A stretch of 64,000 bases of DNA from Lachnospiraceae bacterium (GCA_017526985.1 JAFXQR010000072.1:2128-66127), one strand, 5' to 3'. Positions 33,066 through 61,968 are shown, counted from the stretch's first letter. Numbers and translations: made by a program. The notes: a model not told the origin generated them from the sequence alone.

Positions 33066-33286
33066 AATCGATTTCCTCCTTATACATGGTCTGAATCTGT
33101 CGTTTTCTGTTTCTGTTGAATCCACTATAGCAACCTAAGTGCAAGAAAAGTGCAAGCATTTCGGCTATTTTTGAAAAATATAAAAATTTTTTGAGCCATG
33201 GTTGACATATGCAGATCGTCTGTTATAATTATTTTGATAATATGAGTGTCAAGTGTTACCGCCAACAGCCAAAGGAGGGCAGAACT

Positions 33287-40705: not shown

Positions 40706-41311
40706 CTAGTTTAGAAGAATAACATCACTCTTTAACAGCTTGTTTTCAATCTTTACCTCATTCAGGCCCTGCGTTTTCACATCCTGCATATAAGCCGCAA
40801 TCCTCTCACGCATCTTATCAAAATCACTCTTCATTGCCAGGTTTTTCTCCATCGTTCCGGCATCACAGACCACATACAGTCGATTCAGCAATTGCTTTCT
40901 TCCCTGTTGCGACTGGTTTGCATAATACCATTGGATCATATCGTTTTTGCCGGCCCGCGTGGACAGATCATAGGGTCTGCCGGACAGTTTTGACGGATAG
41001 ACCGTGAGCTTGACATCAAACGGTACCCGGTTAATATATATATCCACGTCATGATTATAGATATCCCGATCGTGTACTGCTCCATATTCACAGAAGATGT
41101 ATTCGCAGCGCACGGATGTCATATAATTGTACCAGCGATGCAGTGCGTATGCCTGATCCACTCCTCTTCGTTTGATCTCCTGCAGGCACGCATCCAGCGA
41201 ATTCATTTGATAGATGAAATTGGTGGCCTTATCATCCCGGTCGGTCTGCATATTCCAGGATGCGGACAGCATTGTTAACGCCTTTTTCAGATCTTGTTCC
41301 ATTCGGTTCAT
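40706..41311 (-). CDS. Hypothetical protein (201 aa) with a possible PD-(D/E)XK-like motif
   Basis: Clean ORF with its own promoter and terminator. HDVDIYINRVPFDVKLT fits D...(D/E)xK only loosely. Confidence 0.55.
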   Translation of the reverse strand: MNRMEQDLKKALTMLSASWNMQTDRDDKATNFIYQMNSLDACLQEIKRRGVDQAYALHRWYNYMTSVRCEYIFCEYGAVHDRDIYNHDVDIYINRVPFDVKLTVYPSKLSGRPYDLSTRAGKNDMIQWYYANQSQQGRKQLLNRLYVVCDAGTMEKNLAMKSDFDKMRERIAAYMQDVKTQGLNEVKIENKLLKSDVILLN

Positions 41312-41403
41312 GTGGAGCTCCTTTCTGTGGTTATCTTTTGCAATGGTTATGTGATTTGTTCATAAAAATCTTCTTCATAACAAATCATCTGCCTATGTAT
41401 GAC

Positions 41404-41445
41404 AGTATATAACCTCAATAACAATTTCCGTATTTTTTACGGAAG
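41404..41445 (-). promoter_or_regulatory. Shared promoter architecture, copy 4: CTTCCGT-AAAAAAT-ACGGAAA, N15, TATACT (gene orientation)
   Basis: Read directly from the sequence; same layout as 53732, 58690 and 61928. Confidence 0.6.
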
Positions 41446-41691
41446 ACAAATATCCGCTCCGAATCCGGATTAGCTTTAACAGAAGCGTTTAAAATCTTTT
41501 TGCAGCAAACTTTGAATGTTCAAACTCTGCCTCTGTTTACTTCTTCCGAAACCAAAAGCATTATAGAAGAGCAGGCAAAAAACTTTTTTGGCAAAACTCG
41601 ACAATGGAATCAAGTCTACTGAAACGGAAGGCCGGATCTCCGAAGAAGAGATGTGGAAGGAGTTTGGCAACAACGAATGAAACGTTCTATC

Positions 41692-43830
41692 CTATAATTC
41701 GTCCAATAGATTACGCTGACTATCCCATATTAATTCTCTCATCTTTTTTATTTCTGGTATCTTTGAGATATAAGCATGTGCACTATTATTCCGCATTTCT
41801 GTAATTGTCCTAATCAAGGGCGCATACTTTTTTAACTTTCCTGTATAATTCCTGATAATATAACCAGCCGAGCCAAGAGATCTGCAATGATCTTTAAGCT
41901 GTTCATTTTTTGCTTCTCTATATTCCTCTGATTTTTCAAGATAGTTCCATATGCTTTCCTCATATACCCGTGCATACTCAACCAAAACCGGAGCACAATC
42001 TATCATGTCATTCTCTTTAAATACATTGTATATCTGCTCCGCCGATGCCAGGTATTTTAAGGCTTTATCTGTCAAATTCGGATATCTGTCTGATGCTTTT
42101 TTCAGTTCTTTCTTAAATCCTTCTTGATCTTTTGTTTGAACAACCTTTTGTATCTTCGAAATAACAGAATTCATTTTATCTTTTATCGATGTTGTTTCCC
42201 ACATTTCATCTGTTATTTCTATACACTCATCAATAATCTGACTTGATACTAAGTCGTTATACCACTGATTTTGAACTTCAACCATCCTTCTAATCTTATT
42301 TTCACGATCTTCCAGTTGCTTCTGTATTATATTTTTTTCTTTTCCGGCTTGTAGTCCTATCTTATATAGTTTTTCCTGCTCTTGAATAGATACAAGAACT
42401 GCATTCTTCTCCTGTGCTTCTTTCATCTGTGAATATTTTTCATATACACAATAGGCCTCTGCATACAAATCCATCATTTTGAGTGTTTCTATCATCTTTA
42501 AATATAATTCCTTCAACACAATCCTTGATGGTCTTTTTAATGAAGGAAGAAATAATGGCCCCTGAAACTTTTCATTCTTTTTTATATCTTTTTCGACCGT
42601 TTCTATAGCCCATTCATATACATCTTTGGCTTTATCATATTTCTTCTGATTCAAAAATATCGCCCCAAGAGCTTGCATTTTAAACGCATCCGGACGAATC
42701 GCTATTGATGCAATACCAGCTTGTTCTGCCTTTTCAAACTCTCTTCTCTGTTCCCATATTCTAGACATCGCATATAATATAAGATCATTATCTGCGGATA
42801 TTGTTTTCGAATACTGGCATGCCTCTTCTATTTCATACATCTCAATCAATGCAATCAGTCTTAGCGCCTGATATTCATATTTGAGTTCTTGCGGGCTATT
42901 TTCATATTCCATAAGATGATTATCTTTTGCATCATCTAACCTTTTCAGAGTTCTTTTTAGTTCTCCATGATCTCCAGAAAACATTATTGCACTTAGTTTC
43001 TCACAGGCGAGAAAGAAATAATTATAGAAATTTGTATTTTTTATCGTCACATATTCAAAAAGTGACTCATACAGGAGTATTGTTCTTGAAATATTGTTTT
43101 CCACAAATGTAGTTGCATAAGTGAGCAATTCCGTGTAATTGTATGATTTTTTATTTTCTAGAAACAACTCATAGTACCGCTCAAATTCATCCGGATTCTT
43201 ATATATCTCTATCTTAAATAGTTCTATTAATCTTTCTTCAAAATACACATCTCCCAATTCCGAACCAACAAACCAGTTATTATTTGCCTCCCACGGTTTA
43301 TACGATCTTTCTGCCATAAATTTCATATTGTGCTTTGCTTTTATCCGACATGCTTCCCATACATTTTTGCACAATATAAATGTACACAAAAGCACCTGCC
43401 AGGCGCCCGTCTTGGATCTTATCTCCAATTCTCGACTACTGATTTGGCAGTTATCCGATTTCTCAGCAAATTTTATCGCTTTACTAAATTCATCTATCTT
43501 ATACCTGCTCCCAGCGTGTTTCTTTATCGCAACATTAAAATTAGCCACTGCCAAAAGTGAATATGTTGCTGGCTGTAATGTCTCATCGTCTTCCCAGCAT
43601 GCAATACTGCAAATTTCCATCAAACATATCTCAGCCTCCCGATATTTCTTTTCAGATAAATAAGCAAACGCCGCATCATAGAGCAGATCCGATTTATTCA
43701 AATCATTTCCGGTTAATAATTCCTTATTAATCTTTCCCTTGGCGTTTATCATATCACCGCCAACTCTCTTTTTTGATATGATTGGAATCATCGATTCAAA
43801 ATTATTCAATATTTCGGAATAATTATCCAT
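41692..43830 (-). CDS. Large helical-repeat (TPR-like) protein with a C-terminal HEPN-type Rx4H motif
   Basis: EMRNNSAH at 41776-41793 fits the HEPN RNxxxH signature. Repeat-rich helical N-terminal 500 aa. The start (ATG 43830 or GTG 43839) abuts or overlaps the upstream stop. Confidence 0.55.
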   Translation of the reverse strand: MDNYSEILNNFESMIPIISKKRVGGDMINAKGKINKELLTGNDLNKSDLLYDAAFAYLSEKKYREAEICLMEICSIACWEDDETLQPATYSLLAVANFNVAIKKHAGSRYKIDEFSKAIKFAEKSDNCQISSRELEIRSKTGAWQVLLCTFILCKNVWEACRIKAKHNMKFMAERSYKPWEANNNWFVGSELGDVYFEERLIELFKIEIYKNPDEFERYYELFLENKKSYNYTELLTYATTFVENNISRTILLYESLFEYVTIKNTNFYNYFFLACEKLSAIMFSGDHGELKRTLKRLDDAKDNHLMEYENSPQELKYEYQALRLIALIEMYEIEEACQYSKTISADNDLILYAMSRIWEQRREFEKAEQAGIASIAIRPDAFKMQALGAIFLNQKKYDKAKDVYEWAIETVEKDIKKNEKFQGPLFLPSLKRPSRIVLKELYLKMIETLKMMDLYAEAYCVYEKYSQMKEAQEKNAVLVSIQEQEKLYKIGLQAGKEKNIIQKQLEDRENKIRRMVEVQNQWYNDLVSSQIIDECIEITDEMWETTSIKDKMNSVISKIQKVVQTKDQEGFKKELKKASDRYPNLTDKALKYLASAEQIYNVFKENDMIDCAPVLVEYARVYEESIWNYLEKSEEYREAKNEQLKDHCRSLGSAGYIIRNYTGKLKKYAPLIRTITEMRNNSAHAYISKIPEIKKMRELIWDSQRNLLDEL

Positions 43831-43835
43831 ACAAA

Positions 43836-44822
43836 TCACCCATCTTTCCGGTCCGGCATTAACATATCAAACATCGAAATCTGTTGGTCATACTGTACCA
43901 AGCGTTTCTGATCCGTAGCATCTTTCACCTCTTCCCCCGGATTGATCGTATCACAAAGTATCGGAGATTTCGGATCATATTTCGCCATAGACTTTTTAAC
44001 ACTTTCCGGGCTATAGTTTGCATAACAATAAATACACCCGTTACTGCAGGTATTGTGACAGCCGATTTCTTTACTGGGCATACATTTGCAATCATTTCTT
44101 TGCGCTGCATCTTTCAGATTCTTCTTCGTATCCTTGATCTTTCCACCGGTAAGTCTTTCCACCAGCGCCTTATCGATGCAAGCATTATGGTCAATCCCCA
44201 AATCTTCCAGATCGATCTTTTCGGCACATGTAGCCACTTTCATATTGTTTGCACCGGCGATCTCTCTTATCCGGATTGCCATATCCCGCATCTCTTCATC
44301 TGAAGGATAATATATTCCCATATCGTCCAAGGTCTTCTTTATCTTAAAATAATCATCCACGAAACTGAATACACATTTTTCCGTATATCCTTTCAGACAA
44401 CCTGCGATCTCTTCAAATGCTCTGTAATGCCAATCAAGCGGATATCGATTATTGATCATGATAGGATCATATCTCCAGATCACTCGCTCCGGTCCTATCT
44501 TATCCGCAAGTTGCTGAAATGCCGGAATCAGCACTTTTTTCTTATCCGGTAGATTTCGCTCTATATCTTTTCCATATCCGGTTAAGGTAAACTGAAAATA
44601 ATAACAATAGTCTTTCAATTCATCCAGCCTGGGGATCAACGGCACCGGATTCTTCGTCCAGAAAACAATGCAATCTACCAGTTCCGGATCCAAAGAGATC
44701 CTGGATAACTGTTTTGCATTCATCGGATTACGCACTACGGCATAGCCTTCTTTGACTCTGTTTAGGAACCATTCTGTAAAATATGCAGGTATATCCGTCC
44801 TGCGACTGGCACTGATGATCAT
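43836..44822 (-). CDS. DUF1848-like protein with a C-terminal Cys cluster
   Basis: N-terminus MIISASRRTDIPAYFTEWFLNR...VFWTKNP...WRYDP and C-terminus CKCMPSKEIGCHNTCSNGCIYCYAN match my recollection of PF08902. AGGAG RBS before the ATG at 44822. Confidence 0.6.
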   Translation of the reverse strand: MIISASRRTDIPAYFTEWFLNRVKEGYAVVRNPMNAKQLSRISLDPELVDCIVFWTKNPVPLIPRLDELKDYCYYFQFTLTGYGKDIERNLPDKKKVLIPAFQQLADKIGPERVIWRYDPIMINNRYPLDWHYRAFEEIAGCLKGYTEKCVFSFVDDYFKIKKTLDDMGIYYPSDEEMRDMAIRIREIAGANNMKVATCAEKIDLEDLGIDHNACIDKALVERLTGGKIKDTKKNLKDAAQRNDCKCMPSKEIGCHNTCSNGCIYCYANYSPESVKKSMAKYDPKSPILCDTINPGEEVKDATDQKRLVQYDQQISMFDMLMPDRKDG

Positions 44823-44845
44823 TATCTCTTCTCCTATCGTATAGT

Positions 44846-45877
44846 TTATCGATGAATCAATTTTATTATTTGAAATAAGCTTGTTGTTGCTCGCGTAACA
44901 CATTTTCGCTGTTTACATGCATGCAATATGCTACTCAAACTATCTCTCACCTCAGATATTTCTCTTTCAACTTCAAAATCATTGTTCAGTTCCTCTATTC
45001 TTGGACAATTAAAAAAACTTCCTTGTTGTATTTTTTTAAATGCATAGCATGGCCAATACTCCTCATCTGCTATATTCTTCAAAGGTCCATCTTCTCCGAT
45101 ATATTCATCCGAAAGATCATTCTCTACTAGAAATCTATTATCATAGTTAATAGCCTCCACAATACGCTGAGCGATAGTTTTCATTGTCTGTTTTTCTCTA
45201 TACTGGCTATGCGAATGTGAAATAATTATATGATGATCTCTATCCGCTTGTATGGCATCAGCATTATTTCTTATCATTTCAACCAGCCGGTTTAAATATA
45301 TATCCGGAAGTTCATTCAAGATTTTAGGAAAAATAATAGTATTATAGCTGCATATCCATTTTGTATTTTCAATAAAATCAAGTATATCTGAAACGCCTTG
45401 TGGAAAATCATCTCTTCCTGGATATCTCATCCCCAGGTAGCCGTTTCCAAATGTGTATGCTCTTTCCATTGCATTATCGTTATTCGGAGAAAACTGTATC
45501 CCCCATCTTACCATATCCATCCCAACATATCTTAAAGATAATTCTGGATTCACCTGGTTTTTAGCGTATGCTAACGCCCATGCATCAATACAAGAACCAC
45601 ACCCCAAAGAAGTAACACCAAAAATATTTTGTAGCGGATCATAATCATCTATAACCATTTTGTATAGAAAAGCATATTCAAAAGCATACGCATACCCATA
45701 TCTCAATAAATATACTGCATTAAACAATTCATCATCATAATGAAAATCTTCTTCTTGAGCATTTCGATAATTAATACCAAGAACAGTTTGCAGTTCTTCA
45801 TCCGGCTCTTGATTTCTAATATGTTCTCTCACTATACTAGCACAATTTCTCATCACTTCATTGAAATATTCAATCAT
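44846..45877 (-). CDS. Hypothetical protein, possible class I SAM-dependent methyltransferase fold
   Basis: Motif I-like VTSLGCGSCID followed about 25 aa later by a motif II-like RYVGMDM; GGGAGA RBS. Confidence 0.4.
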   Translation of the reverse strand: MIEYFNEVMRNCASIVREHIRNQEPDEELQTVLGINYRNAQEEDFHYDDELFNAVYLLRYGYAYAFEYAFLYKMVIDDYDPLQNIFGVTSLGCGSCIDAWALAYAKNQVNPELSLRYVGMDMVRWGIQFSPNNDNAMERAYTFGNGYLGMRYPGRDDFPQGVSDILDFIENTKWICSYNTIIFPKILNELPDIYLNRLVEMIRNNADAIQADRDHHIIISHSHSQYREKQTMKTIAQRIVEAINYDNRFLVENDLSDEYIGEDGPLKNIADEEYWPCYAFKKIQQGSFFNCPRIEELNNDFEVEREISEVRDSLSSILHACKQRKCVTRATTSLFQIIKLIHR

Positions 45878-46234
45878 CTTTTTTCTCCCTTCTTGATTAC
45901 CCTTTATGATCTAATAGTTTATACTCTTTTTTCTGCTCCCTATAACATTCCTTCTGCCTATAAACCATATAAAAATCTTTATATTTCTGTCTTTAAGATG
46001 GTTTTCATCAAGAAAAATATATTTAATGAATTCAGATATGCCTCTATACAAAATATCTGTGTTCTATTTGTCATTAGACTATATCAAAACAGATAAGGTC
46101 TTTATTAATCTCTTATTCCGATTATCATTTCTTTTCGCATATATTATATCATCTTCTATATAAATACATCAAATGACATATTCACCAAAAAGGCCACAAC
46201 AATATTATAAACAATAACAATCACCTCAAATCTT

Positions 46235-46726
46235 TTATATAAACTTCTCCCGATTCAGGTTGCACTCGTGACAAACCACGCAGGCGTTTTCCCATATCCT
46301 AGGTTTCTCTGGATCTTTGCGACGCAATACTCCTTCCTGCAGATCACATCCACACCCGACACATTTCCCGTTCTGCTTCCGGATCAGTTGTTGCTTCTGA
46401 TACGCATAATTCTCCAGTTCCTTACAGATCCCTTCTTCGACAAACTTCAGTTTCTTCTTATGGTCCGGAGCTAAATGGAGCTTGTCCAACTCCGGCAGCA
46501 TATCTTCTTTTATCGTATTGCATTCCGGATGGGTTCGGACATAATTGTCTTTTGACTCGATATGATCCACCAGCTGTTTTTGCTCAACCGCAGACAGATA
46601 TTCTTCTGACCATTTGTATATCGCTCTCGGATAAACATGATCTCTGTTGGAACTCCCTTCGATACTCTTCCCGCATATGGCACAGATCTGCTGCTTTCTC
46701 TTATTCAATTCATTCATCTGACTCAT
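46235..46726 (-). CDS. HNH endonuclease
   Basis: CAICG...DHVYPRAIY...HPECNTIKED plus a second CxxC...CxxC pair; GGAGGTG RBS. Confidence 0.8.
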   Translation of the reverse strand: MSQMNELNKRKQQICAICGKSIEGSSNRDHVYPRAIYKWSEEYLSAVEQKQLVDHIESKDNYVRTHPECNTIKEDMLPELDKLHLAPDHKKKLKFVEEGICKELENYAYQKQQLIRKQNGKCVGCGCDLQEGVLRRKDPEKPRIWENACVVCHECNLNREKFI

Positions 46727-46805
46727 ACGATCACCTCCGTTTCTATTTTCATATAAAATCAGTCCTTCTATGTATACACATTTTTCTCTGCCTGCATCTC
46801 CCGGA

Positions 46806-47564
46806 TCAAAACGAAACCGCTCTTACCCCGGTAAGCGACTCCAGACTCACAGATAGCAAAAAATTATGCAGAAACATATCAACAAGCTCCATGGATGTGA
46901 AGCAAACATGCTCAATATCATCATAGCAACCATTATGCATGTATTTCAATACCTCACCGCAGGACAAATGCCCGGTATCCCGGATATACTCGCCATCCTT
47001 CCCGGGAAAAGCACAGAAACTGATCACTTCATGTCCAAGCCGCACGATATTATGCGTATCGCACATCGGCAATTGATCGGCCTTATGGAATCCGACACTT
47101 CCAGCCTCTTTATCCAGCCACCGATTCAGATACGAACCCTTCTGACCTGCCATCACGCTGTTGTGGTATACGATATACTCACCGCTTCCGATCACATCCA
47201 GGTTGATCGTAAGTTTTGGACGATACTTGGAAAAGTGCATTGTGCTTCCGTAAAACCCGCTCTCTTCCCTGTCCAGAAAAACAAAACAGACATTAGGATC
47301 ACCGGCCCGCTCCTCACACAGATGCAACAACACAGCGCAGGAAGAACCATTATCATTGGCTCCGCATGATCCCGGCACAATATCATAGTGTGCACAGATC
47401 GTCACCAGCGCGTTTTTCGGATCACCAACCATCAGGTTGACCGCATTTTCATTCCGCTCGATCCTGTAAAAAATGCGCTTTCTTGCAAGTATGCGTCTGA
47501 TCTGTTTCCGACGCTCTTCTGTCGTACAATAGGAGATCTCCATTAATGATTCTTTTAAATCCAT
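46806..47564 (-). CDS. M28-family metallopeptidase-like protein (short, 252 aa)
   Basis: Zn-ligand pattern AHYD...ANDNGSS...DREESGFYGS...NLDVIG...MHNGCYD; GGAGGT RBS. Confidence 0.6.
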   Translation of the reverse strand: MDLKESLMEISYCTTEERRKQIRRILARKRIFYRIERNENAVNLMVGDPKNALVTICAHYDIVPGSCGANDNGSSCAVLLHLCEERAGDPNVCFVFLDREESGFYGSTMHFSKYRPKLTINLDVIGSGEYIVYHNSVMAGQKGSYLNRWLDKEAGSVGFHKADQLPMCDTHNIVRLGHEVISFCAFPGKDGEYIRDTGHLSCGEVLKYMHNGCYDDIEHVCFTSMELVDMFLHNFLLSVSLESLTGVRAVSF

Positions 47565-47855
47565 TTTACCTATACCTCCATATTTTTATTTTCCGGATGA
47601 TCTGCACTTAACAGATCATCTGCATGTGACCATACGTAACCACAGCATCTGTTTCCGTACTTTTTTGCAAATAATACAAAAACACCTATCTGCTCTTTTC
47701 CTATTCCTGATATTCGGATAACTTTCTCGATCAGAACCGTTTTGATTTATACACGATTCCCTTTGATACTTTTAGAATTACCGCTCCTTTTTGAGCGTGC
47801 AGAACATATATCGACAACCTGAAAATAAACTTTAGTCTGTTTTAAAAATATTTTC

Positions 47856-47891
47856 AGAAAAATTTTCCCACGGCATTTTACCGTGGGAAAA
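47856..47891 (-). terminator. Terminator hairpin ending the four-gene RecQ-PRTase operon
   Basis: Perfect 11-bp arms TTTTCCCACGG/CCGTGGGAAAA immediately after the stop at 47896, followed by AAAATTTTT on the minus strand. Confidence 0.55.
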
Positions 47892-47895
47892 GTAT

Positions 47896-48978
47896 TTATT
47901 TAATCATTTTTGCTCTTTGTAACACTGCTTCCTTATTCAATACCTTCTTATTGGCAAACATATTTTGCGGTTTCCCGGATGCCTTCTGCAGTTTCCCGAT
48001 CCCCTTCGATTTTCGTTCCTCAAAGTATGCCCGATACTCTGTAAAGCTTTTTTCTCTCCGGACATTCTCTAACTGCGTTTCCGTTATAAACTTCTTATTA
48101 TACTTCGCATAGCAATCCGTAAAATAACCGTTCTTTACCGTATTTTCAAACTCCCGTAGCGCCTGTTCAACCGTTTGAAATATTTTGATCCTTGTTTCCA
48201 GTATATTATCATACTCCGGCGCTTTATCAGATAATTCATACTTTTTTGAAGCATTATCTTCATCCAGCATAAAATCCTGCAGGTCAGCTAAAGTATGGTA
48301 TAGGACACAGGCATAGCACTGATCCCTGTTTTCCGGATCAATACTGCCTCCCACGATCCTCTGTACACTATCACTTATGCGATCGGTTCCGATCAGATAC
48401 ACTCCCGCTCCGGTTTTCGGATCAATACGCAATGGAATAAAACATGAGCTGAGTTTCATTGCATAAATTCCCTGATACAGATCATCCATACGGTCGATCT
48501 CTTCTTCGGTAACATTCCGTCCGGTTGGCACTCTGGCTGTATCATCTCCTGCAACACCTCCGTCTGCCGAACCGCCCAGATTCCTCACCAGGGTATTTAA
48601 TAATTCAATATCATCGATATTCTTTTTTTCTTTTTGCTCGATGGCAGCTCTTTTCTTTTCTGCTTCTTCTCTCTTTTTCTCTTCCGCCTCCCGATCCTTC
48701 CTGTCTTGGGGATCCTTTCGTTTTCCGGAAGCTTCTTCCTGCAAGCGCTTTTTTTCGCGCTTACGCCGCAAAACCCCGTGACGCCGCAAAAAGTCATCGA
48801 CCACTTCTTCTGTCACATAGTCTGCTGTTTTTCCCTTTTTCTCATAGTAACTGCACAAACACACATACAGAATACTCTCTTCACGCTTATTCTTAGCACT
48901 CTTTTCCGTATACTCTTCTTCCAGAAACGAGTACATTTCCCTTTGGTTTTTTATTTCTATCCCGTTTGGCAAGATCAT
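47896..48978 (-). CDS. Hypothetical protein (360 aa) with a central K/E/R-rich segment
   Basis: ATGA start/stop overlap with the upstream gene; no motif recognised. Confidence 0.6.
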   Translation of the reverse strand: MILPNGIEIKNQREMYSFLEEEYTEKSAKNKREESILYVCLCSYYEKKGKTADYVTEEVVDDFLRRHGVLRRKREKKRLQEEASGKRKDPQDRKDREAEEKKREEAEKKRAAIEQKEKKNIDDIELLNTLVRNLGGSADGGVAGDDTARVPTGRNVTEEEIDRMDDLYQGIYAMKLSSCFIPLRIDPKTGAGVYLIGTDRISDSVQRIVGGSIDPENRDQCYACVLYHTLADLQDFMLDEDNASKKYELSDKAPEYDNILETRIKIFQTVEQALREFENTVKNGYFTDCYAKYNKKFITETQLENVRREKSFTEYRAYFEERKSKGIGKLQKASGKPQNMFANKKVLNKEAVLQRAKMIK

Positions 48979-50540
48979 GCAAGAGTCCTCGCTTTCTTTA
49001 CCTGACGCGCTACCAGTTCCGGCGTACGTTCCAGCTGGTACAGCACAAAACCGTAACCCATACCCGTCGATGCTGCAGAGATACCTTTTTCATACAGATA
49101 CACTTCCATCATCCATGAAAAATCTTCCTTAAGCTGCGCCCGCTCATTCAGATGTTTGCTATACTCCAGGCGGAAACGATGATACGCCTGCACCAGACGC
49201 TCCTGCATCACTTCCGGCAGAGTCTCTTTCCATCCTCGCACCGCAACTTCCATGGCTTTGATGCCTTTCTCTTCCGCCTCAAGCATATCATCAAACTGAC
49301 GCGCTGCCTCATTTTCATCAAAGTCATCTGCATACGCCTCTACAAAATTCGAGTAGTCCTCATCTTCCTGTGTCGGTATATACTCCTCCACCTCAGCAGC
49401 CATATCCAGATACTGCGCATCCTCTGCACTCACTCCGCGGATCGCAGCGGCATCTTCGTCACGCCCCAGCCATTCCAATGCTCTGGCGTAAAGCATATCC
49501 TCAAAGCTTTTGAATTTTCTCCGCTCCACCATCTCATCGGTATAATCTTCCCGCAGTTGACTTTCCAGTGAAGGCGTCTCCTGCACATCTTTTGTATTTG
49601 CACGCGCACGGATCATCCGGTCTGCCAGCGCGATCACTTCTTCCCTGGAAAGATCCTTGTCTTGCCCTTCCAGAAATGCCGTTTGATATTCCATATAGCT
49701 GTCTTTGTCTGCAAACCCGCAGTTTTTCAGATACTCCTCCACATCCGAATAACCTGCCCACTTCGCCCGTTCCTTCAGGCCTTCCTCCGTGTTCGCATAC
49801 ATCTGCGGACCGATCTTCAGCTCCTTTGCAATATTTTTGTCACTATAGCGTTTCAGCCATTCATCGGCAGGATTTCTGTCCGATTGCAGCAGATTCCAAT
49901 AACTCTGTTTCCATTTTTCCCGCACATCCTCCGGCAGTGCTGCGATCCCTTCATAATCCGGCAGGAAGCTGCGGTCGTTCTTTAACCAGAACAGTGACAA
50001 GCTCATATAACGGAAAAAGGATCGATAATCCGAGCCACCCCACTTCAGTCCGGCTGCTTTATCATCATCTCCCATTTCCTGCAGCAGCAAGCTTTCCGGA
50101 TCCACACAGGCAAATGCCATACGCATCACATCCATCAGATCCTGATAGGTTTCATTATTATGGGGTGCCCAGCTGGCGTTCTCCATAGGATCTTCTTCAT
50201 CTACCGTACAGCAATCTGCTCCGCGGGAATTCAAAAACTCTGTCCGCACCGGCGACGCCCCCACCAGCAGACAATACAAAAAATCCGCATAGAATTGCCT
50301 CATTTCTTCACTGAGCTCTCTTTTTTCCGAGGTCAGATAACGCTTCATCGCATCCAGCATCTTCGAGATCATCGCATCCACTTTCTGTTCAACGAGAACG
50401 CCATTCTCATCCGTGATCTCCTTTAAATACCCATGCTCACACCCCAACGCTGCATTGCGGATCGCATCGAGGCGCTCCGTTAATTGTGCCCTGCGCTCAC
50501 GTATCCGATCCATCTCTGTATCCTCCATTCTTTTGCTCAT
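48975..50540 (-). CDS. Hypothetical acidic protein (521 aa)
   Basis: GGGGAGG RBS; starts 27 nt after the DprA-like gene; no motif recognised. Confidence 0.6.
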   Translation of the reverse strand: MSKRMEDTEMDRIRERRAQLTERLDAIRNAALGCEHGYLKEITDENGVLVEQKVDAMISKMLDAMKRYLTSEKRELSEEMRQFYADFLYCLLVGASPVRTEFLNSRGADCCTVDEEDPMENASWAPHNNETYQDLMDVMRMAFACVDPESLLLQEMGDDDKAAGLKWGGSDYRSFFRYMSLSLFWLKNDRSFLPDYEGIAALPEDVREKWKQSYWNLLQSDRNPADEWLKRYSDKNIAKELKIGPQMYANTEEGLKERAKWAGYSDVEEYLKNCGFADKDSYMEYQTAFLEGQDKDLSREEVIALADRMIRARANTKDVQETPSLESQLREDYTDEMVERRKFKSFEDMLYARALEWLGRDEDAAAIRGVSAEDAQYLDMAAEVEEYIPTQEDEDYSNFVEAYADDFDENEAARQFDDMLEAEEKGIKAMEVAVRGWKETLPEVMQERLVQAYHRFRLEYSKHLNERAQLKEDFSWMMEVYLYEKGISAASTGMGYGFVLYQLERTPELVARQVKKARTLA

Positions 50541-50567
50541 AACCGGTCTTTTCCTCCCCTAAGCTTC

Positions 50568-51584
50568 TTATTCCTCTGACGAGTCTCCCTGTTTCATCAG
50601 ATCCTCAAACGACATCTGACTGAATTCTTTTTCCTCTGTCTTCTTTTCTTCTGTCGGCACAGTCTCTGCTGCTTTCTTTTCCGGCATCTTTCCGTCATCC
50701 AGCAGCGGGATAGCTCCTCTGCGGATCAGTTCCTGATTACCTGGATAGTTTTTATTATCCCACACAAAGACCGTAGTCCATCTGTGCTTCAGTGCTTCCG
50801 TCGCACCGCTCCATGTACCGCCCTTATTCAGATCCGAGCGCACCACCACCGTGGCTTTTGACTGTGCATAAATATACTTATTGCGTTCCATCGCAGATGC
50901 CACAAAAGAATGCCTGCTTTTGGCTGCAAGCGGAGATACATGACTATACATCAACAGTCTTTGATCAAAGACCGCTTCCCGAAGCAGCGCGTCCCCCATT
51001 CTTTGTTTCATGGTATCCGGAAAATAGACGATCGCGCTCCCACCATGTTTCAGGCACCGGAGTAATGCCACACTATCAATCCCCTGCGCGCCCCCGGTCA
51101 CAATGCCAAATCCTTTTTTCAGATTTTCATCCACGCGCTCTTCCGTCCAGGCGATATCTTCATTTCCGATATCTCTGGATCCCACATACCCGGCCATTTT
51201 CTGCTGATTGATCTGTCTGCTGCCGACCGTATATAACAACGGCGGACAAAAATCCCCCAGCTTCTCTAACAATGCCTGAGGAAAATCCTCATCCAGTACT
51301 GTACTGATCCTTACACCCATCTGCTCCAATTTTTCTTTTCCAAAGGCAATGGATGCGCTGCGCTTCAACAACTCTTCTATCTTTTCTTCCTGCGCCGCGA
51401 TCAATTCGTCCATCGAATCATTATATTTATGATAAAGCTTCCAGAACTCCGCACGGGTCAGTGGTGTATTCCCATCCGCAAATTCCCCGCAAAGGATTAT
51501 GATATATTCTGAATTCATATCCATTTTGACTCTCTCTTTCATGGGCAAAGGGGACTCACAAAAACTGCAGATCCCGTATGCCAT
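50568..51584 (-). CDS. DprA/Smf-like (SLOG-fold) protein with a C-terminal acidic tail
   Basis: GYVGSRD...GFGIVTGGAQGIDSVALL...ERNKYIYAQSKATVVVRSDLNKGGTWSGATEAL parallels the DprA Rossmann core. Confidence 0.7.
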   Translation of the reverse strand: MAYGICSFCESPLPMKERVKMDMNSEYIIILCGEFADGNTPLTRAEFWKLYHKYNDSMDELIAAQEEKIEELLKRSASIAFGKEKLEQMGVRISTVLDEDFPQALLEKLGDFCPPLLYTVGSRQINQQKMAGYVGSRDIGNEDIAWTEERVDENLKKGFGIVTGGAQGIDSVALLRCLKHGGSAIVYFPDTMKQRMGDALLREAVFDQRLLMYSHVSPLAAKSRHSFVASAMERNKYIYAQSKATVVVRSDLNKGGTWSGATEALKHRWTTVFVWDNKNYPGNQELIRRGAIPLLDDGKMPEKKAAETVPTEEKKTEEKEFSQMSFEDLMKQGDSSEE

Positions 51585-51608
51585 TTTTTCTTTGTCTATT
51601 TTACACGA

Positions 51609-53681
51609 TCAATCGTCACCTGTCATGCTGCTGTCTGCCAGACAGAAAGGGAACACTTTCTGCGCCCCATGCTTTAACAGATACCAGCCGCCTACAGTCA
51701 GTGTCCACCCGGAATCAACCATATCATCTACCAGGATCACATTTTCCGGAACGATCACACCATCCTTGATCTGCATAGAATTCTTTACATTATCGAACTG
51801 ATGAAAGCTGTTGTTCAACGTTTTCTGCTGCGGTGCATCCGGATCCGTTTTTTTCAGAGTATCCAGATACTCCATCCCAAGGCCCTCCGCCAGCTTTCTT
51901 GCAAAATTCTCTACCTTTTTATTCCTTGCAGAAGGAATATTGGTCACTGCCGTATAGCCCTGATCCGCCAGTTTCTCTTTTAGTACTGCGATGGATTTCT
52001 GTACCAGTTCATCACGGAATTCAGCTTCGTGGTACTTATCGTGAGCAACCATTTCACCATAGCCTGCCTGACCATATTTGGACAAAGCCAGACCGGTCTC
52101 ATTCAATGCAGAGATCACGGTATTTCGATCCAGACCATTCTCCGCCACCGGCCAGCGCTTCTTCGGCTCGATCTCAAGATATCTTGCACCGATCATCTGC
52201 TCTACCTGTGCGATATCCTCCGCAGTAGGTTTCACCACCGGATCGAAAATTTCTTTCTGCAGGCAATTCGCACATTTTCCGCAAGGCTTAGCGGTATCAT
52301 CATTCAGACAATTCACGATGAATTTGCTCAGACATTCTTTTGTATGGATATACTGTTTCATCGTGTCCAGTTCGGCATACTTCATCTTCTTAATGTTATC
52401 ATAGTGCTCACCGTTGTAATGATACGGGTTCATGGATCTCTTATACTTGGAACCATCCTTATAGATCACATCCTGGTTCATCAGCATATTCAATACTCTT
52501 TCCATATCCGTTCTTCGTATATCACAAAGACGCATCATATCGTTGACGGAGAGCCCTTCTGCTGTTTGTTCCAGAGCATCGATGATCTTGCGCTCCTCTT
52601 CCTCCGTCGGAAACGCGTGCTCGATAAAATAGGTTGAGATCTTATCGTCTTCTTCGCCCGTCATCATATAGCAATATGCTTCCATACCCTCTTTTCTTCC
52701 GGCACGACCGATCTGCTGATAGTACGCCACGACGGAAGACGGCTTCTGATAGTGGATGACAAAACCGATGTCCGACTTATCATAGCCCATTCCTAATTTC
52801 ACTGTAGCTACGATCACCTTGATCTTGTTCGCGTTGAACAGTCTTTCGGTCTCTCTCAGTGTCTCTTCGTTCTCGCTATCGGAATAATAACGACGGGCAC
52901 TGATCCCGTTTTCCATCAGATAGTCCGTGATCAGATCACAGTCTCTTCTGGTAAGACAGTATACGATACCGGTCCCCGGCAGTTTCGGGATGTTCTCCTT
53001 CATCCATGCGTAGCGCTCCACCTGCGAATTCATCTTCAGAATTTCAATGTGCAGACTGTCACGACTCAACGGACCTCTGGATACAAAAACATTGTCCCCA
53101 AACTGCTTCTTCAGATCTTCGATCACGCGATCATTCGCCGTAGCAGTAGTCCCCAAAACAGCCACATTTTCCGGCATTTGAGCGATCACACGGTTTAATT
53201 TGGAATACTGCAGGCGGAAATCGTGCCCCCAATCCGAGATACAATGACACTCATCGATCACCAATAAACGGATCGGCAGTTGCGGAAGCATACTCTGCAC
53301 TTCTTCTTTCTGCAGAGTTTCCGGTGTGGTAAAGACGACATCATATTCCTGATTTTTAAGCTTTTCAAAAAATTCGGTTCTGGCCTCATCCTTGACGGAA
53401 CTGTTGATCACACCACATTTCAGATGGAACTTTTCGGCATACTCCATCTGGTTGTCCATCAGAACCAACAAGGGACTGATGATCAGGGTAACACCGCCCA
53501 GGATTTTGGATGCCACAAAATACACCAGCGATTTGCCCCAGCCGGTCTTTTGCACCACCAACGTTCGCTTATTGGATAAGGTGGCTTCGATGGCCTCATA
53601 CTGCCCTTCAAAAAAGCCGGCATTCTCTCCATAAGCTTCTTTCATCACCTGCATTGCCTTGTTAAAGATTTCCTGGTTCAT
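51609..53681 (-). CDS. RecQ-family helicase fused to a C-terminal ComF-like phosphoribosyltransferase (PRTase) domain
   Basis: QKTGWGKS (motif I), VIDECHCISDWGHDFR (DExH), RecQ Zn motif CGKCANC, PRTase motif VILVDDMVDSGWTLTV; AAGGAGG RBS. Confidence 0.85.
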   Translation of the reverse strand: MNQEIFNKAMQVMKEAYGENAGFFEGQYEAIEATLSNKRTLVVQKTGWGKSLVYFVASKILGGVTLIISPLLVLMDNQMEYAEKFHLKCGVINSSVKDEARTEFFEKLKNQEYDVVFTTPETLQKEEVQSMLPQLPIRLLVIDECHCISDWGHDFRLQYSKLNRVIAQMPENVAVLGTTATANDRVIEDLKKQFGDNVFVSRGPLSRDSLHIEILKMNSQVERYAWMKENIPKLPGTGIVYCLTRRDCDLITDYLMENGISARRYYSDSENEETLRETERLFNANKIKVIVATVKLGMGYDKSDIGFVIHYQKPSSVVAYYQQIGRAGRKEGMEAYCYMMTGEEDDKISTYFIEHAFPTEEEERKIIDALEQTAEGLSVNDMMRLCDIRRTDMERVLNMLMNQDVIYKDGSKYKRSMNPYHYNGEHYDNIKKMKYAELDTMKQYIHTKECLSKFIVNCLNDDTAKPCGKCANCLQKEIFDPVVKPTAEDIAQVEQMIGARYLEIEPKKRWPVAENGLDRNTVISALNETGLALSKYGQAGYGEMVAHDKYHEAEFRDELVQKSIAVLKEKLADQGYTAVTNIPSARNKKVENFARKLAEGLGMEYLDTLKKTDPDAPQQKTLNNSFHQFDNVKNSMQIKDGVIVPENVILVDDMVDSGWTLTVGGWYLLKHGAQKVFPFCLADSSMTGDD

Positions 53682-53731
53682 TTCAAATTCCTCCTTATGT
53701 TGAGTTTGTTGAGTTGTTTTTATTTACCAGT

Positions 53732-53773
53732 AGTTTATCATGTGTGATCATTTTTCCGTAATTTTCACGGAAA
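53732..53773 (-). promoter_or_regulatory. Shared promoter architecture, copy 1: TTTCCGT-GAAAATT-ACGGAAA, N15, TAAACT (gene orientation)
   Basis: Read directly; the -10-like hexamer ends about 50 nt upstream of the RecQ-PRTase start. Confidence 0.6.
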
Positions 53774-53894
53774 ACGGATTGTTCATCCCTTAATGCCAGC
53801 AAATACCTGCCTTGACGCCTACGATTTGATCTAAATAAACCCTGCAAAAGGATTTATTCCCTTGCAGGGTATTTTTTGACTCTGATAATGTTTC

Positions 53895-56547: not shown

Positions 56548-57126
56548 TCAAATATGGTCAATGATCTTGGTTGCGATGCCGAACTCCAACGCCTGCTGCG
56601 CCGTCAGGAAGGTGTCTTCTTTGGTCTTTTCGTAGACCTCTTCGAGGCTGCGGCCGCTGCGGTCTGCGATGATACCGCCGGTCACCTCGCGCAGTTCCAG
56701 CAGACGTGCGGCTTCTTTTTCCAGCTCCAGTGCCTTACGACTGCCGGAGAGGCCTGCGATCAGCGGATCGTGGATCATGATCTTGGTGTGGGGCAGCATC
56801 TCACGCTTGTCCCCGGCCAGAAACAGGATGGATCCCATACTGGCTGCAGTGCCGATGCATACGGTGCGGATGGGGCACTTCATCAGGCGCAGCGTGTCAT
56901 AAGCTGCCAGACCGCTCACCACCTCGCCGCCCGGCGTATTGATGTAGAGCGTGATCTCCGCGTCCGGATCTTCCGCCTCCAGACACAGCAGGTACTGGAT
57001 CAGCGTATTACAGCTCTCAGAGTTGACCTCTTCGGTGAAGAAGAGTTTGCGCTCCTTTAAGAGCATGCTTTCCGGGGTGATGCTGTCGATGCCTCTGGAT
57101 GTTTCTTTCAAAAAATAACCGTTCAT
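56548..57126 (-). CDS. clpP: ClpP-family serine protease subunit (divergent paralogue)
   Basis: LYINTPGGEV, catalytic Ser in GTAASMGS, His in IMIHDP. Confidence 0.75.
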   Translation of the reverse strand: MNGYFLKETSRGIDSITPESMLLKERKLFFTEEVNSESCNTLIQYLLCLEAEDPDAEITLYINTPGGEVVSGLAAYDTLRLMKCPIRTVCIGTAASMGSILFLAGDKREMLPHTKIMIHDPLIAGLSGSRKALELEKEAARLLELREVTGGIIADRSGRSLEEVYEKTKEDTFLTAQQALEFGIATKIIDHI

Positions 57127-57225: not shown

Positions 57226-58647
57226 TTACGAAGCCTGTGCCTGGTTCGGTTCCGGATCCAGGTACTCCGCCGCATAGGGCTCCACCTTTGCTACCTGTCT
57301 GGCGTGCGAACCGCGTTCAAAGAACCAGGCATCCGTCAGCGGCATTTCCAGGATGGTCTCCGGCAGCTTTCCGGACTTGGTGGCAAAGAAGCGCGCCGTC
57401 TCCACATCCTGCCCGCCCAGGTAGAGCATATGGTCGCAGTTGTTGATGATGGTCTGCGCCTGCCCTTCCTTGTACATACCGCTCAGCTGAGAGATGCTCT
57501 GCAGGATCACTGTCGCGTAGATCTCGCGGGAGCGGATGTTGGAGATGATCTTGTCGAAGTTCGGAATGCAGACATTCGACGCGAAGTCATCCAGCACGAT
57601 GCGTACCGGTACTGCCAGGCGACCGTCTTCGTGGAAATCCGCCTCCATACACAGGCTCTTAAACAGCTGCGTATAGAACAGATTCACCAGGTTATCCATG
57701 GAACGGTCCGTATCGCTGATGTTGACGAACAGTACCGTCTTCTGGCGTCCCAGTTCCGGGAAGAGGATGGTGCTGCGGCGGTTGAACATCTTAGCGTTGG
57801 AGCTGTACTCAAAGGGAGACAGCGCATTTGCCACAAACTGCGTGATGGACGACCAGCACTTCTCCGCCTTGAAATTGCAGCTATACTTATGGTACATACG
57901 CACCGCAAAGCTGTCGGGATTTTCGGCTTCCAGTTCCGTAAAGAAGGTAACGCCCATCCAGCCGCGCTCCTGGCCGTTTCTCGCCGCCTGCTCTGTCAGC
58001 TCATCATAGAGTCTGCAGACCGAGCCCATATGCTGCTCCTTTCTCGGCAGCACTTCCAGGCAGTACGCCATCAGACTGACGATCACGTTGCGGGCCGAAT
58101 CTCCCCAGAAGGTGCTGTCGTTGTCCACATCGTCCGGGACCAGAACCTTAACGATGCTCATCAGGTCCTCTTCGCGGTAACCGTACTTCTTCTCGCGGAT
58201 CTCACCAAAGGGTGTCTGCTTCACCTCGTCTTCCCAGGTACGCTCGATGTAGTCCATCGGGTTGTACGCCGCCGACTGCTCCGGACGGACAAAGTTGAAG
58301 TTTTCCACACGGAAGCCCCGTCTGCGCAGATATCCGCCGTAGTTCTTGTACAACTGGCTCTTGGCGTCAACCACTACCAGGCTGTGCTGCAGATCCCTTA
58401 AATTCGGGACCACATAGCCGCCGGTCTTTCCGGATCCTGCCGTACCCACCAGCAGGTCATTATTGTTGAGTTTGGTCGCACGAGGGTTGTTGGATACCGT
58501 TACGCCCTTTGCAAAGACACGGCTGCCCAGTTCCTCCAGGCTCATCTGCTTGTTTTCGGTTGTGTTTACTGTGATGTTCTTCATGGCATTAGTCTCCTTT
58601 CCGCCATTTGCTGTGTTGCCTGCATTCATCAGCTCGCTTCTCATCAT
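57226..58647 (-). CDS. VirD4/TraG-like type IV coupling protein ATPase domain without N-terminal TM segments
   Basis: Walker A GTAGSGKTGG, VLDDFASN, and ILQSISQLSGMYKEGQAQTIINNCDHMLYLGG, a T4CP-like stretch as I recall. Alternative in-frame start at MKNITV also has an RBS. Confidence 0.7.
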   Translation of the reverse strand: MMRSELMNAGNTANGGKETNAMKNITVNTTENKQMSLEELGSRVFAKGVTVSNNPRATKLNNNDLLVGTAGSGKTGGYVVPNLRDLQHSLVVVDAKSQLYKNYGGYLRRRGFRVENFNFVRPEQSAAYNPMDYIERTWEDEVKQTPFGEIREKKYGYREEDLMSIVKVLVPDDVDNDSTFWGDSARNVIVSLMAYCLEVLPRKEQHMGSVCRLYDELTEQAARNGQERGWMGVTFFTELEAENPDSFAVRMYHKYSCNFKAEKCWSSITQFVANALSPFEYSSNAKMFNRRSTILFPELGRQKTVLFVNISDTDRSMDNLVNLFYTQLFKSLCMEADFHEDGRLAVPVRIVLDDFASNVCIPNFDKIISNIRSREIYATVILQSISQLSGMYKEGQAQTIINNCDHMLYLGGQDVETARFFATKSGKLPETILEMPLTDAWFFERGSHARQVAKVEPYAAEYLDPEPNQAQAS

Positions 58648-58689: not shown

Positions 58690-58731
58690 ATAGTAACATC
58701 GCTTGTTTTGTTTCCGTGATTTTTACGGAAA
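58690..58731 (-). promoter_or_regulatory. Shared promoter architecture, copy 2: TTTCCGT-AAAAATC-ACGGAAA, N15, TACTAT (gene orientation)
   Basis: Read directly; TGT immediately precedes the TACTAT hexamer (extended -10-like). Confidence 0.6.
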
Positions 58732-60910: not shown

Positions 60911-61861
60911 TTACATCGTAGAATAACTGAAGACCCTGCCTAATTGATTTTGCCTTGCCGTCGCCACACGCATCGGGCCGTAAAACATCAGCAGATTGAC
61001 CCAGTTTGCTGCCAGACGGACCTCGATATCACTGGGCGGCCACGATGACGATAACTGGAACGGGATCTGTTCGATGGTCTCGTCATAATGACGCCTAAAA
61101 TTCCGACGGATCGGATACAACTCTACCCAGTTATGGTTCGCATCCATCAGGATCTCACAGCAGCGCACCAGCACTTCCGAGATAGTCGGATACCGGTCGT
61201 ATTTTTCCTTCCACAGATCCACATCATATTTGAAGCAGACATTGTACGCTTCCCAATACCCCATCAGCATGCTGTCGCAATAGTATCGCTCTTCCGGCAG
61301 TGGCAGACTCACCAGATACTGGAAATAATCCACGACAGAAAGCTGCAGAAAAGGCAGCACCTTGCGCTTATGATCCGGGCTGATGCTCTTCTTTTTTGGC
61401 GCCTCTCCTTTCTTTTCTGCGCTATGACCTTCCTTCTCCTTTTCCTTCGGTCTGCGTACTTTGTAAGCATCATACGCTCTCAGATCCCCCACGGCCAAAA
61501 AAGACAGCCAGGCGAGTTGCATTCCCCTCAGCTCCCGGCCAAAGTGCTGCAGCACCATCTGCGCATACGATGTTTCTTTCGTAACATCAAAATCTTCGGA
61601 TAACATTTCTGCCACTTTCTCCGGATCATTTATAAAAGGACTGACGACATTTCGTATTGGCTGCGCCAGGAAATTATGGATCACCTTCTCTACATACCCG
61701 TCGGTATGGACACGCCCCTGCCTGGTGAGTTTCAGGATCTCCGACAGATTCTTGCGACCCTCACCATCATCCGACTCCTCAAATGCATCCGGGCAGAATG
61801 TTTCTGCGGCTCTTCCCATTTCGTCCTCAAAGTTCCTGTCCATCATGTTTCTCTCGTCCAT
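60911..61861 (-). CDS. Hypothetical protein (316 aa)
   Basis: AGGAGG RBS 7 nt before the ATG at 61861 (MDERNMM); no motif recognised. Confidence 0.6.
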   Translation of the reverse strand: MDERNMMDRNFEDEMGRAAETFCPDAFEESDDGEGRKNLSEILKLTRQGRVHTDGYVEKVIHNFLAQPIRNVVSPFINDPEKVAEMLSEDFDVTKETSYAQMVLQHFGRELRGMQLAWLSFLAVGDLRAYDAYKVRRPKEKEKEGHSAEKKGEAPKKKSISPDHKRKVLPFLQLSVVDYFQYLVSLPLPEERYYCDSMLMGYWEAYNVCFKYDVDLWKEKYDRYPTISEVLVRCCEILMDANHNWVELYPIRRNFRRHYDETIEQIPFQLSSSWPPSDIEVRLAANWVNLLMFYGPMRVATARQNQLGRVFSYSTM

Positions 61862-61927
61862 ATCCGTACCTCCTTCTTGTTGCCGGTTACCATCTGCCAT
61901 TACCATCTTTTACTTCTATCAAAAACA

Positions 61928-61968
61928 ATATTAACGCACATCTTTTTCTTTCCGTGATTTTTACGGAT
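61928..61968 (-). promoter_or_regulatory. Shared promoter architecture, copy 3: ATCCGT-AAAAATC-ACGGAAA, N15, TAATAT (gene orientation)
   Basis: Read directly; the distal half-site is one position weaker. Confidence 0.55.

Follow-up and report, generated by a model that had tools for sequence, protein, structure and literature searches.

A canonical PsyrTA pair and a probably separate two-gene module of an uncharacterised gene cluster in a Lachnospiraceae bacterium

Four consecutive same-strand genes (g1 to g4) lie in a 64,000-nucleotide (nt) stretch of DNA from a Lachnospiraceae bacterium (GCA_017526985.1, JAFXQR010000072.1:2128-66127), the whole of which is here called the window. The original prediction for this locus, made from the sequence alone, held that g1 and g2 form a PsyrTA-type defence or toxin-antitoxin pair and that g3 and g4 could be new components of a four-component variant of that system. 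The first claim was borne out, and the second was largely contradicted. We favour, with a probability of about 0.7, a reading in which a known PsyrTA cassette stands next to a separate g3/g4 module that belongs to an uncharacterised, co-regulated gene cluster, rather than a single four-component system. The four open reading frames (ORFs) were found on the minus strand exactly where they had been described, with the same sizes and gaps, and a terminator hairpin was present after g4. The features of the locus are as follows.

51609-53681, minus strand: g1 (PsyrT/RqlH), 690 amino acids (aa); RecQ-family helicase at residues ~7-475 including the Zn-binding region, phosphoribosyltransferase (PRTase) at about 580-690, phosphoribosyl pyrophosphate (PRPP) loop at 648-660
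50568-51584, minus strand: g2 (PsyrA/RqlI), DprA-like antitoxin by PADLOC PsyrA and PF02481, 338 aa as full ORF
48975-50540, minus strand: g3, 521 aa
47896-48978, minus strand: g4, 360 aa
47863-47891, minus strand: intrinsic-terminator-like hairpin 3' of g4, 13-bp stem and T-run
53839-53870, minus strand: terminator-like hairpin of the upstream ABC-F gene, 5' limit of the transcription unit
53752-53774, minus strand: operator-like palindrome TTTTCCGTGAAAATTACGGAAAA with its CCGT-N7-ACGG core at 53756-53770; the PsyrT ATG lies 75 nt downstream

The identity of the first two genes was established with family-specific models. g1 matched the PADLOC PsyrT model at 3e-229, over positions 6-686 of 689, and g2 matched the PADLOC PsyrA model at 5.2e-70, over positions 3-320 of 398. 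RecQ motifs I, II, III and VI could be read in g1 as GWGKS, DECH, TAT and QQIGRAGR, together with a Zn-Cys cluster; the Pfam models DEAD (85 bits), Helicase_C (68 bits) and RecQ_Zn_bind (33.6 bits) were above cut-off, and TIGR00614 (recQ_fam) scored 265.6 bits against a cut-off of 219.8. At the C-terminus, Pfam Pribosyltran reached 22.3 bits, under its 26.3 cut-off, a ComF-type match was found at 3.8e-5, and the PRPP loop was read as VILVDDMVDSGWT. With the generic models below threshold, the predicted PRTase of g1 is decided by the PsyrT model. g2 scored 95.7 bits against PF02481 (DNA_processg_A), in agreement with its earlier description as DprA-like. A RecQ core toxin, a C-terminal PRTase in the same polypeptide and a DprA-like gene directly downstream on the same strand, the hallmarks of PsyrTA, were all found, and by these predicted domains g1 and g2 are a canonical PsyrTA/RqlHI toxin-antitoxin and a predicted phage-defence pair.

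The suggestion that g1 is a novel fusion merging two toxin types was rejected. A RecQ helicase with a C-terminal PRTase is the canonical PsyrT/RqlH architecture (PMC4670107; Millman et al.), and E. coli RqlH has the same 690-aa layout. In RqlH the PRTase at 509-690 causes toxicity; its DprA-like partner RqlI, the equivalent of PsyrA, binds RqlH, and rqlHI was found to be a two-gene operon by reverse transcription-polymerase chain reaction (PMC4670107). In the list of Millman et al. 2022, too, PsyrTA is a defence system of two genes whose toxin contains a PRTase. The window pair shares with PsyrTA/RqlHI (Sberro 2013; Russell & Mulvey 2015, PMC4670107; Millman 2022) the length of g1, the RecQ core, the Zn-binding region, the C-terminal PRTase with an acidic PRPP loop and the position of the DprA-like gene. 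It differs from them in that g1 is just 32-40% identical to full-length plasmid-borne PsyrT proteins, and in that g2 stops ~80 positions short of the C-terminal end of the PsyrA model; the missing part is a helix-turn-helix (HTH) region that is dispensable in RqlI (PMC4670107). The window pair also has no terminator of its own, two unrelated genes start 27 nt after g2, and its promoter region bears the putative operator of the neighbouring cluster. A metagenome (JGI) scan with the PsyrT C-terminus recovered only the same element (locus L012) and one short contig, and a viral contig scan for PsyrT gave only weak matches at the level of the Zn-finger. For PsyrTA itself little changes: the window adds a divergent Clostridial member to a system whose mechanism is incompletely understood.

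Three other assignments of g1 and g2 were rejected. ShosTA also combines a PRTase toxin with a DprA-like antitoxin, and g2 matched ShosA at 2e-21. However, ShosT lacks a helicase and begins with a PPase-like Rossmann domain (PMC12961424), while the first two thirds of g1 form a RecQ helicase; g1 matched PsyrT best by far, with no ShosT among the best 25 PADLOC matches listed, and g2 scored far better on PsyrA. The competence genes ComFA, ComFC and DprA likewise represent helicase, PRTase-like and DprA activities, a likeness of RqlHI already pointed out by Russell & Mulvey (PMC4670107). Here, however, g1 is of the RecQ family and not ComFA, no com genes lie nearby in the window, and the competence models remained far below their cut-offs (TIGR00201, 23.7 vs 233.55 bits; TIGR00732, 74.3 vs 191.15; PRK10736, 32 vs 495). 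Dpd was discarded on the score of NF041063 DpdF (152 bits vs a cut-off of 550); PADLOC DpdF matches to g1 covered the helicase part only and were far weaker than the PsyrT match.

The four genes are tightly spaced. The gap between g1 and g2 is 24 nt, that between g2 and g3 is 27 nt with a GGAGG ribosome-binding site (RBS), and g3 and g4 overlap by 4 nt (ATGA), with g4 predicted to be translationally coupled to g3. Residue M21 (51524), which would give a g2 of 318 aa, is probably the true start of that gene, as suggested by a better RBS and by agreement with a 318-aa gene call in the near-identical contig L002; the g1-g2 gap would then become 84 nt. The hairpin after g4 had a folding energy of -19.6 kcal/mol (z = -5.7). 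No terminator-like hairpin was found in the g2-g3 or g3-g4 junctions of the window and no promoter-like site just upstream of g3, which makes co-transcription of g1 to g4 plausible, as we infer from the layout. Rfam and tRNA scans gave no match. This arrangement speaks for the four-component reading of the original prediction, under which g3 and g4 would be accessory sensor, regulator or effector subunits of PsyrTA: one promoter region precedes all four genes, and the short g2-g3 gap contains an RBS and no terminator. The comparisons given below nevertheless make that reading improbable.

The proteins encoded by g3 and g4 were, as had been claimed, without a recognisable domain. Neither matched a model in Pfam, PADLOC, NCBIfam or PHROG, and 51 g3-family members had no Pfam or PHROG assignment. 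The acidic character of g3 (isoelectric point 4.6), the overlap between the two genes and the K/E/R-rich centre of g4 were also confirmed; in g4 this stretch or linker spans residues 71-120, and the family core motif is F-I-P-L..D..SGAGVY.IG.D. No match was obtained by tblastn of g3 and g4 against plasmids or of g3 against phages, and viral contig scans contained no g3-family relative. Word-indexed protein searches returned just 3 clusters for g3 and 1 for g4. A profile version with the family alignment A3 added one 93%-identical g3 fragment (P0005) and no distant relatives, and a metagenome (JGI) scan with a 9-member g3 sub-alignment gave no match. An exhaustive hidden Markov model search yielded 76 representative g3 relatives, nearly all of 290-430 aa and aligning just to g3 residues ~1-100 and ~410-521. 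Since its relatives match only its two ends, g3 is, as judged from these alignments, a family member with a clade-specific ~300-aa insert (residues ~100-400). The g3-family members examined were annotated as 'hypothetical protein' in Lachnospiraceae/Oscillospiraceae metagenome-assembled genomes (MAGs) or were unnamed.

An AlphaFold2 model of g3 built from the 51-sequence family alignment was all-alpha and reached a mean per-residue confidence (pLDDT) of 79 and a predicted template modelling score (pTM) of 0.78; an earlier model from 4 sequences had a pLDDT of 49. Foldseek searches with this model gave no significant match in PDB or BFVD (best E = 0.25, TM-score about 0.14), and the g3-family sequence profile matched none of the PDB chains. 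The ratio of nonsynonymous to synonymous divergence (dN/dS) against the 98%-identical contig L002 was 0.09 for g3 and 0.14 for g4, and between loci L001 and L004 it was 0.20 for both. g3 and g4 are real genes under purifying selection; the possibility that they are non-coding or decaying was rejected on these values (0.09-0.20).

The relationship between g3/g4 and PsyrTA was examined in 12 informative distinct contexts of the g3 family from Lachnospiraceae/Oscillospiraceae, all metagenomic, which were compared by tblastn and phmmer; the window element, L002 and L012 are the same element and were counted as one context. In 12/12 contexts the g3-family gene was followed directly by another gene that overlapped it or began within a few nt of its end. 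This partner was detectably homologous to g4 in 11 of them, remotely so in the overlapping partner genes of L008, L010, L011 and L019-L022; the exception was the 1267-aa partner in L005. With tblastn, PsyrT and PsyrA were detected in only two contexts, namely the window element and L004. A VirD4-like ATPase occurred in 8/12, a ClpP-like protease in 7/12 and an FtsH-like double-AAA+ protease in 2/12, and in several contexts an L1_b-like protein was encoded just upstream of the g3-family gene. The original prediction had offered co-occurrence of g3/g4 homologues with PsyrT/PsyrA pairs as its own check; with such pairs in 2 of the 12 contexts, the check went largely against it, and the ten contexts that lack PsyrT and PsyrA weigh against a four-component system.

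A comparison of L001 and L004 provided the same chromosomal site without and with PsyrTA. The flanking BMP, L1_b, L1_c and GGDEF proteins of the two loci are 93-99% identical, and a 3,181-bp PsyrT-PsyrA block lies between L1_c and g3 in L004 and is absent in L001. The L004 block has its own TTGAAG-17-TATAAT promoter-like site and ends in a hairpin with a U-run (-22.1 kcal/mol, z = -3.4), after which come the palindrome, a promoter-like site with a TG-extended -10 element, g3, g4 and a terminator. L001 keeps just the 3' arm of the PsyrA hairpin as a scar, and loss of PsyrTA from L001 is therefore a better explanation of the sequences than gain. g3 and g4 persist intact, and under purifying selection, in L001 without PsyrTA. 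Synonymous divergence (dS) between L001 and L004 was 0.6-0.8 for g3-g4 and 0.01-0.23 for the flanks, a difference that points to a separate, older history of the g3-g4 block, consistent with allele exchange. Both the survival of g3-g4 without PsyrTA and the terminator and separate promoter-like site between PsyrA and g3 in L004 argue against the view that the four genes form one system.

PsyrTA also occurs elsewhere as a self-contained pair of genes. In L004 it has its own promoter-like site and terminator, and the same two-gene layout is found on plasmids; in the window no terminator follows PsyrA. On the E. coli plasmid NZ_OX030731 (L023, 1682-11761), psyrT and psyrA, annotated as RecQ family helicase and DprA, lie inside another unit, hsdM-hsdS-[psyrT-psyrA]-hsdR, with all genes on one strand and little space between them, as in the window. 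There the host unit is a known defence system (type I restriction-modification), whereas the host in the window is the uncharacterised cluster of ClpP-like, VirD4-like, g3 and g4 genes. On a Nostoc plasmid PsyrTA stands alone. The absence of g3/g4-like genes from the plasmid PsyrTA loci, and the experimental sufficiency of two genes for PsyrTA in other hosts (PMC4670107; Millman et al.), likewise disfavour g3 and g4 as subunits. The palindrome follows PsyrTA in L004 and precedes it in the window, which puts PsyrTA on different sides of the g3 regulatory region in the two lineages. Judged from the presence/absence pair and from these two regulatory layouts, PsyrTA behaves as a portable two-gene cassette, and the window probably holds a mobile defence cassette nested in another cluster, as in the hsdMS-hsdR operon.

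Several observations weigh against the two-module reading. L004 is a Lachnospiraceae MAG in which the order PsyrT-PsyrA-g3-g4 is the same as in the window in a different chromosomal context, with proteins that are 58-64% identical (g4 42%). PsyrTA thus lies directly upstream of g3 in two diverged loci, and this repeated adjacency with different regulatory layouts implies either long retention or repeated insertion there. In addition, all full-length 521-aa members of the insert-bearing g3 sub-clade have PsyrTA or, in L001, the PsyrA-terminator scar, and g3 in the window has no promoter-like site of its own. The conserved gene order and the confinement of the large-insert sub-clade to PsyrTA or its scar are also what a four-component system would lead one to expect; functional coupling of PsyrTA with g3/g4 within this sub-clade is a residual possibility. 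The sample of contexts is also small (12) and wholly metagenomic.

Further support for a separate g3/g4 module came from the palindrome upstream of g1, which the original prediction had placed at the promoter of the four genes. The site is real, and near-identical copies lie upstream of three other window genes. Across the window and 11 loci (about 240 kb), 7 perfect copies of CCGT-N7-ACGG with an AT-rich spacer were counted, and a cluster gene begins shortly after every one of them. The window copies precede PsyrT (53756-53770), the VirD4-like gene (58714-58728), the L1_b-like gene (61952-61966) and a 201-aa ORF (41428-41442); those in L011 (2561-2575 and 5513-5527) precede the cluster-leading gene and the g3-family gene, and that in L022 (17056-17070) is upstream of ClpP. 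Copies with one mismatch were found upstream of g3 in L001 and L004, and weaker 13-mer variants upstream of L1_b (L001, L004) and of ClpP (L006, L007). In an unbiased repeat search of the window from 40 to 64 kb, three palindrome sites formed the top family. We infer that the palindrome may act as a shared operator that co-regulates the transcription units of the cluster; no obvious HTH regulator was present among the cluster genes.

The remaining members of the cluster in the window are listed here.

57226-58647, minus strand: VirD4-like ATPase (CD1115 family), 473 aa, predicted soluble; NF045973 276 bits vs cut-off 250, and Pfam T4SS-DNA_transf
56548-57126, minus strand: ClpP-like protease paralogue whose Ser-His-Asp motifs are intact; recurs near g3-family genes
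60911-61906, minus strand: L1_b-like protein, a recurrent upstream neighbour of the g3 family, with a palindrome 46 nt upstream
40706-41311, minus strand: 201-aa ORF, with the palindrome copy at 41428-41442

The ClpP-like and VirD4-like genes lie 3-5 kb upstream of the g1-g4 unit. Homologues of the ATPase with 40-52% identity stand by g3-family genes in L006, L010, L011 and L019-L022, and the ClpP-like protein is 49-72% identical to its counterparts in other contexts. The set of ClpP, VirD4-like, L1_b, g3 and g4 genes is contiguous in L006, L010, L011, L019, L020 and L022. As a provisional definition of the cluster we required a g3-family gene, a g4-family gene that overlaps it or lies next to it downstream, a ClpP-like and a CD1115-type VirD4-like gene within 10 kb, and CCGT-N7-ACGG upstream of the units; the window contains all five gene families and four palindromes. 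The pairing of ClpP with a VirD4-like ATPase was seen in at least 6 other loci, with no other conjugation genes and no clpX nearby. A literature search for a defence system of ClpP and VirD4, or for CD1115, found no description of the cluster or the pairing. The by-product of this analysis is a conserved cluster in which a ClpP paralogue and a conjugation-type coupling ATPase, with no secretion system, are accompanied by three uncharacterised families, with a putative operator in common and often with surroundings that resemble a defence island.

Two proposals for what this cluster does were considered. In the first, g3 and g4 together with the ClpP-like, VirD4-like and L1_b-like proteins would be a new system against phages or mobile elements in which PsyrTA is nested, possibly for co-regulation or synergy; proteolysis by ClpP would be the effector activity, the ATPase would be a sensor or translocase, and the variable g3/g4 proteins would be subunits that confer specificity or act as adaptors. 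Defence-type neighbours favour this proposal: PsyrTA twice, a DarT-NADAR pair in L005, AbiH-like, SLFN-type helicase, HicA and PLD-helicase genes in L019, DUF2357 and a large AAA protein in L022, UvrD-PD-(D/E)XK in L006 and L021, and the DUF1848/HNH island in the window. An ATPase is repeatedly accompanied by a protease, whether as ClpP with the VirD4-like protein or as the FtsH-like double AAA+ protein, and a putative operator is shared; both points lean the same way, as do the fast divergence of g3/g4 and the raised dS of g3-g4 relative to its flanks, which suggests the kind of allele exchange that typifies defence loci. Against it, the ClpP-like, L1_b-like, g3, g4 and partner proteins match no PADLOC model, and the VirD4-like ATPase gives a weak, P-loop-level match to mad8; several loci lie among housekeeping genes (ATP synthase operon, Hsp33, cysS). 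The argument is one of guilt by association from 12 loci, and the absence of g3-family relatives from the plasmid, phage and viral contig sets gives no sign there of cluster mobility. We regard this proposal as doubtful.

The second proposal dispenses with an immune role. The g3/g4 module with the ClpP-like and VirD4-like genes would be what is left of a domesticated CTn4-like conjugative element, or else a module for proteostasis or development particular to the lineage, beside which PsyrTA happened to land. The window ATPase passes the NCBIfam cut-off for 'VirD4-like conjugal transfer protein, CD1115 family', a family of ATPases from Clostridial conjugative transposons, and the clusters are chromosomal, often beside core genes, with extracytoplasmic function (ECF)-type sigma factors near those of L020 and L021. 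Unlike the transposon ATPases, however, that of the window has no other conjugation genes around it, and a ClpP paralogue and members of the g3/g4 families consistently accompany it; the fetched flanks showed neither a relaxase nor VirB4 nor any other type IV secretion system gene, and the ATPase apparently lacks the N-terminal membrane anchor of coupling proteins. The family is also patchy and fast-evolving, unlike housekeeping genes. This account is possible, if still rather unlikely, and for the g3/g4 module a non-immune remnant or proteolysis module and a defence-type system are about equally likely. We would tentatively, and with low confidence, describe the five-family cluster as a previously undescribed ATPase-plus-protease machine of gut Clostridia, with two fast-diverging subunits, co-regulated through the operator, plausibly directed against phages or mobile elements and with PsyrTA nested in it. 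Should the cluster turn out to work in immunity or as a new ATPase-protease machine, it would offer a clonable five-gene candidate from abundant gut bacteria; if not, it is a caution against reading tight, operon-like spacing as a multi-component system.

Under the preferred reading of a PsyrTA cassette beside a separate g3/g4 module, the window would combine two independent modules. The first is a toxin-antitoxin and predicted abortive-infection pair in which, by analogy with the RqlHI literature, the C-terminal PRTase of the RecQ-like helicase PsyrT would be the genotoxic effector, with PsyrA as the partner of PsyrT. Phage infection would relieve the restraint on PsyrT, as proposed by analogy with RqlHI and ShosTA, and the freed PRTase would damage DNA or nucleotide metabolism, so that the infected cell would stop supporting phage growth. 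The second module, the g3-g4 pair, would derive from the Lachnospiraceae/Oscillospiraceae cluster with the ClpP-like protein, the VirD4-like ATPase and the L1_b-like protein. As PsyrTA in the window sits between the putative operator/promoter of the cluster and g3, the four genes would probably be made as one transcript under the regulator of the cluster.

Other proteins recur near g3-family genes. Next to the g3/g4 pair in L008 (6183-9791) and L021 (11372-14968) lies a gene for a ~1200-aa protein that combines two AAA+ modules with an FtsH-type M41 peptidase at its C-terminus; this gene replaces the ClpP and VirD4-like genes in the former and is additional to the VirD4-like gene in the latter. 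L005 (8403-17398) contains tandem g3-family paralogues (516 and 416 aa), the overlapping 1267-aa protein, which has a faint RdRP-family match, a 318-aa protein and a DarT / NADAR-DarT1 pair. Giant sacsin-like proteins (PF25794 SACS / HATPase_c) of 1800-1900 aa are encoded a few kb upstream of the g3 cluster in the unrelated loci L006 (1387-7098) and L008 (1-4121), and the sacsin-like gene of L006 adjoins a UvrD-PD-(D/E)XK helicase-nuclease. A family of 640-680-aa proteins, 27-35% identical between loci, is a recurrent g3/g4 neighbour in L019 (5256-7178), L022 (7806-9848) and L008 (4124-6079, minus strand).

Downstream of g4, the window contains a 6.5-kb low-GC block at 41349-47893, with 33-42% GC vs 45-50% in the flanks. 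Its genes encode an M28-peptidase-like protein, an HNH-like protein, a 343-aa ORF, a DUF1848 protein (PADLOC RTasDUF1848, 8.5e-48), a 715-aa TPR protein and a 65-aa ORF, and both the g4 terminator hairpin and the palindrome copy at 41428 lie inside it. L012, a variant of the element with ~98% identity, lacks the block, and there the 201-aa gene follows the g4 stop at a distance of 60 nt. The probable explanation is an inserted defence-type islet, and insertion or deletion would both fit. Further away, a 1749-aa minus-strand ORF at 27876-33125 had no Pfam match; the AT skew of -0.26 to -0.42 over 28-33 kb suggests an unusually biased or repetitive giant protein.

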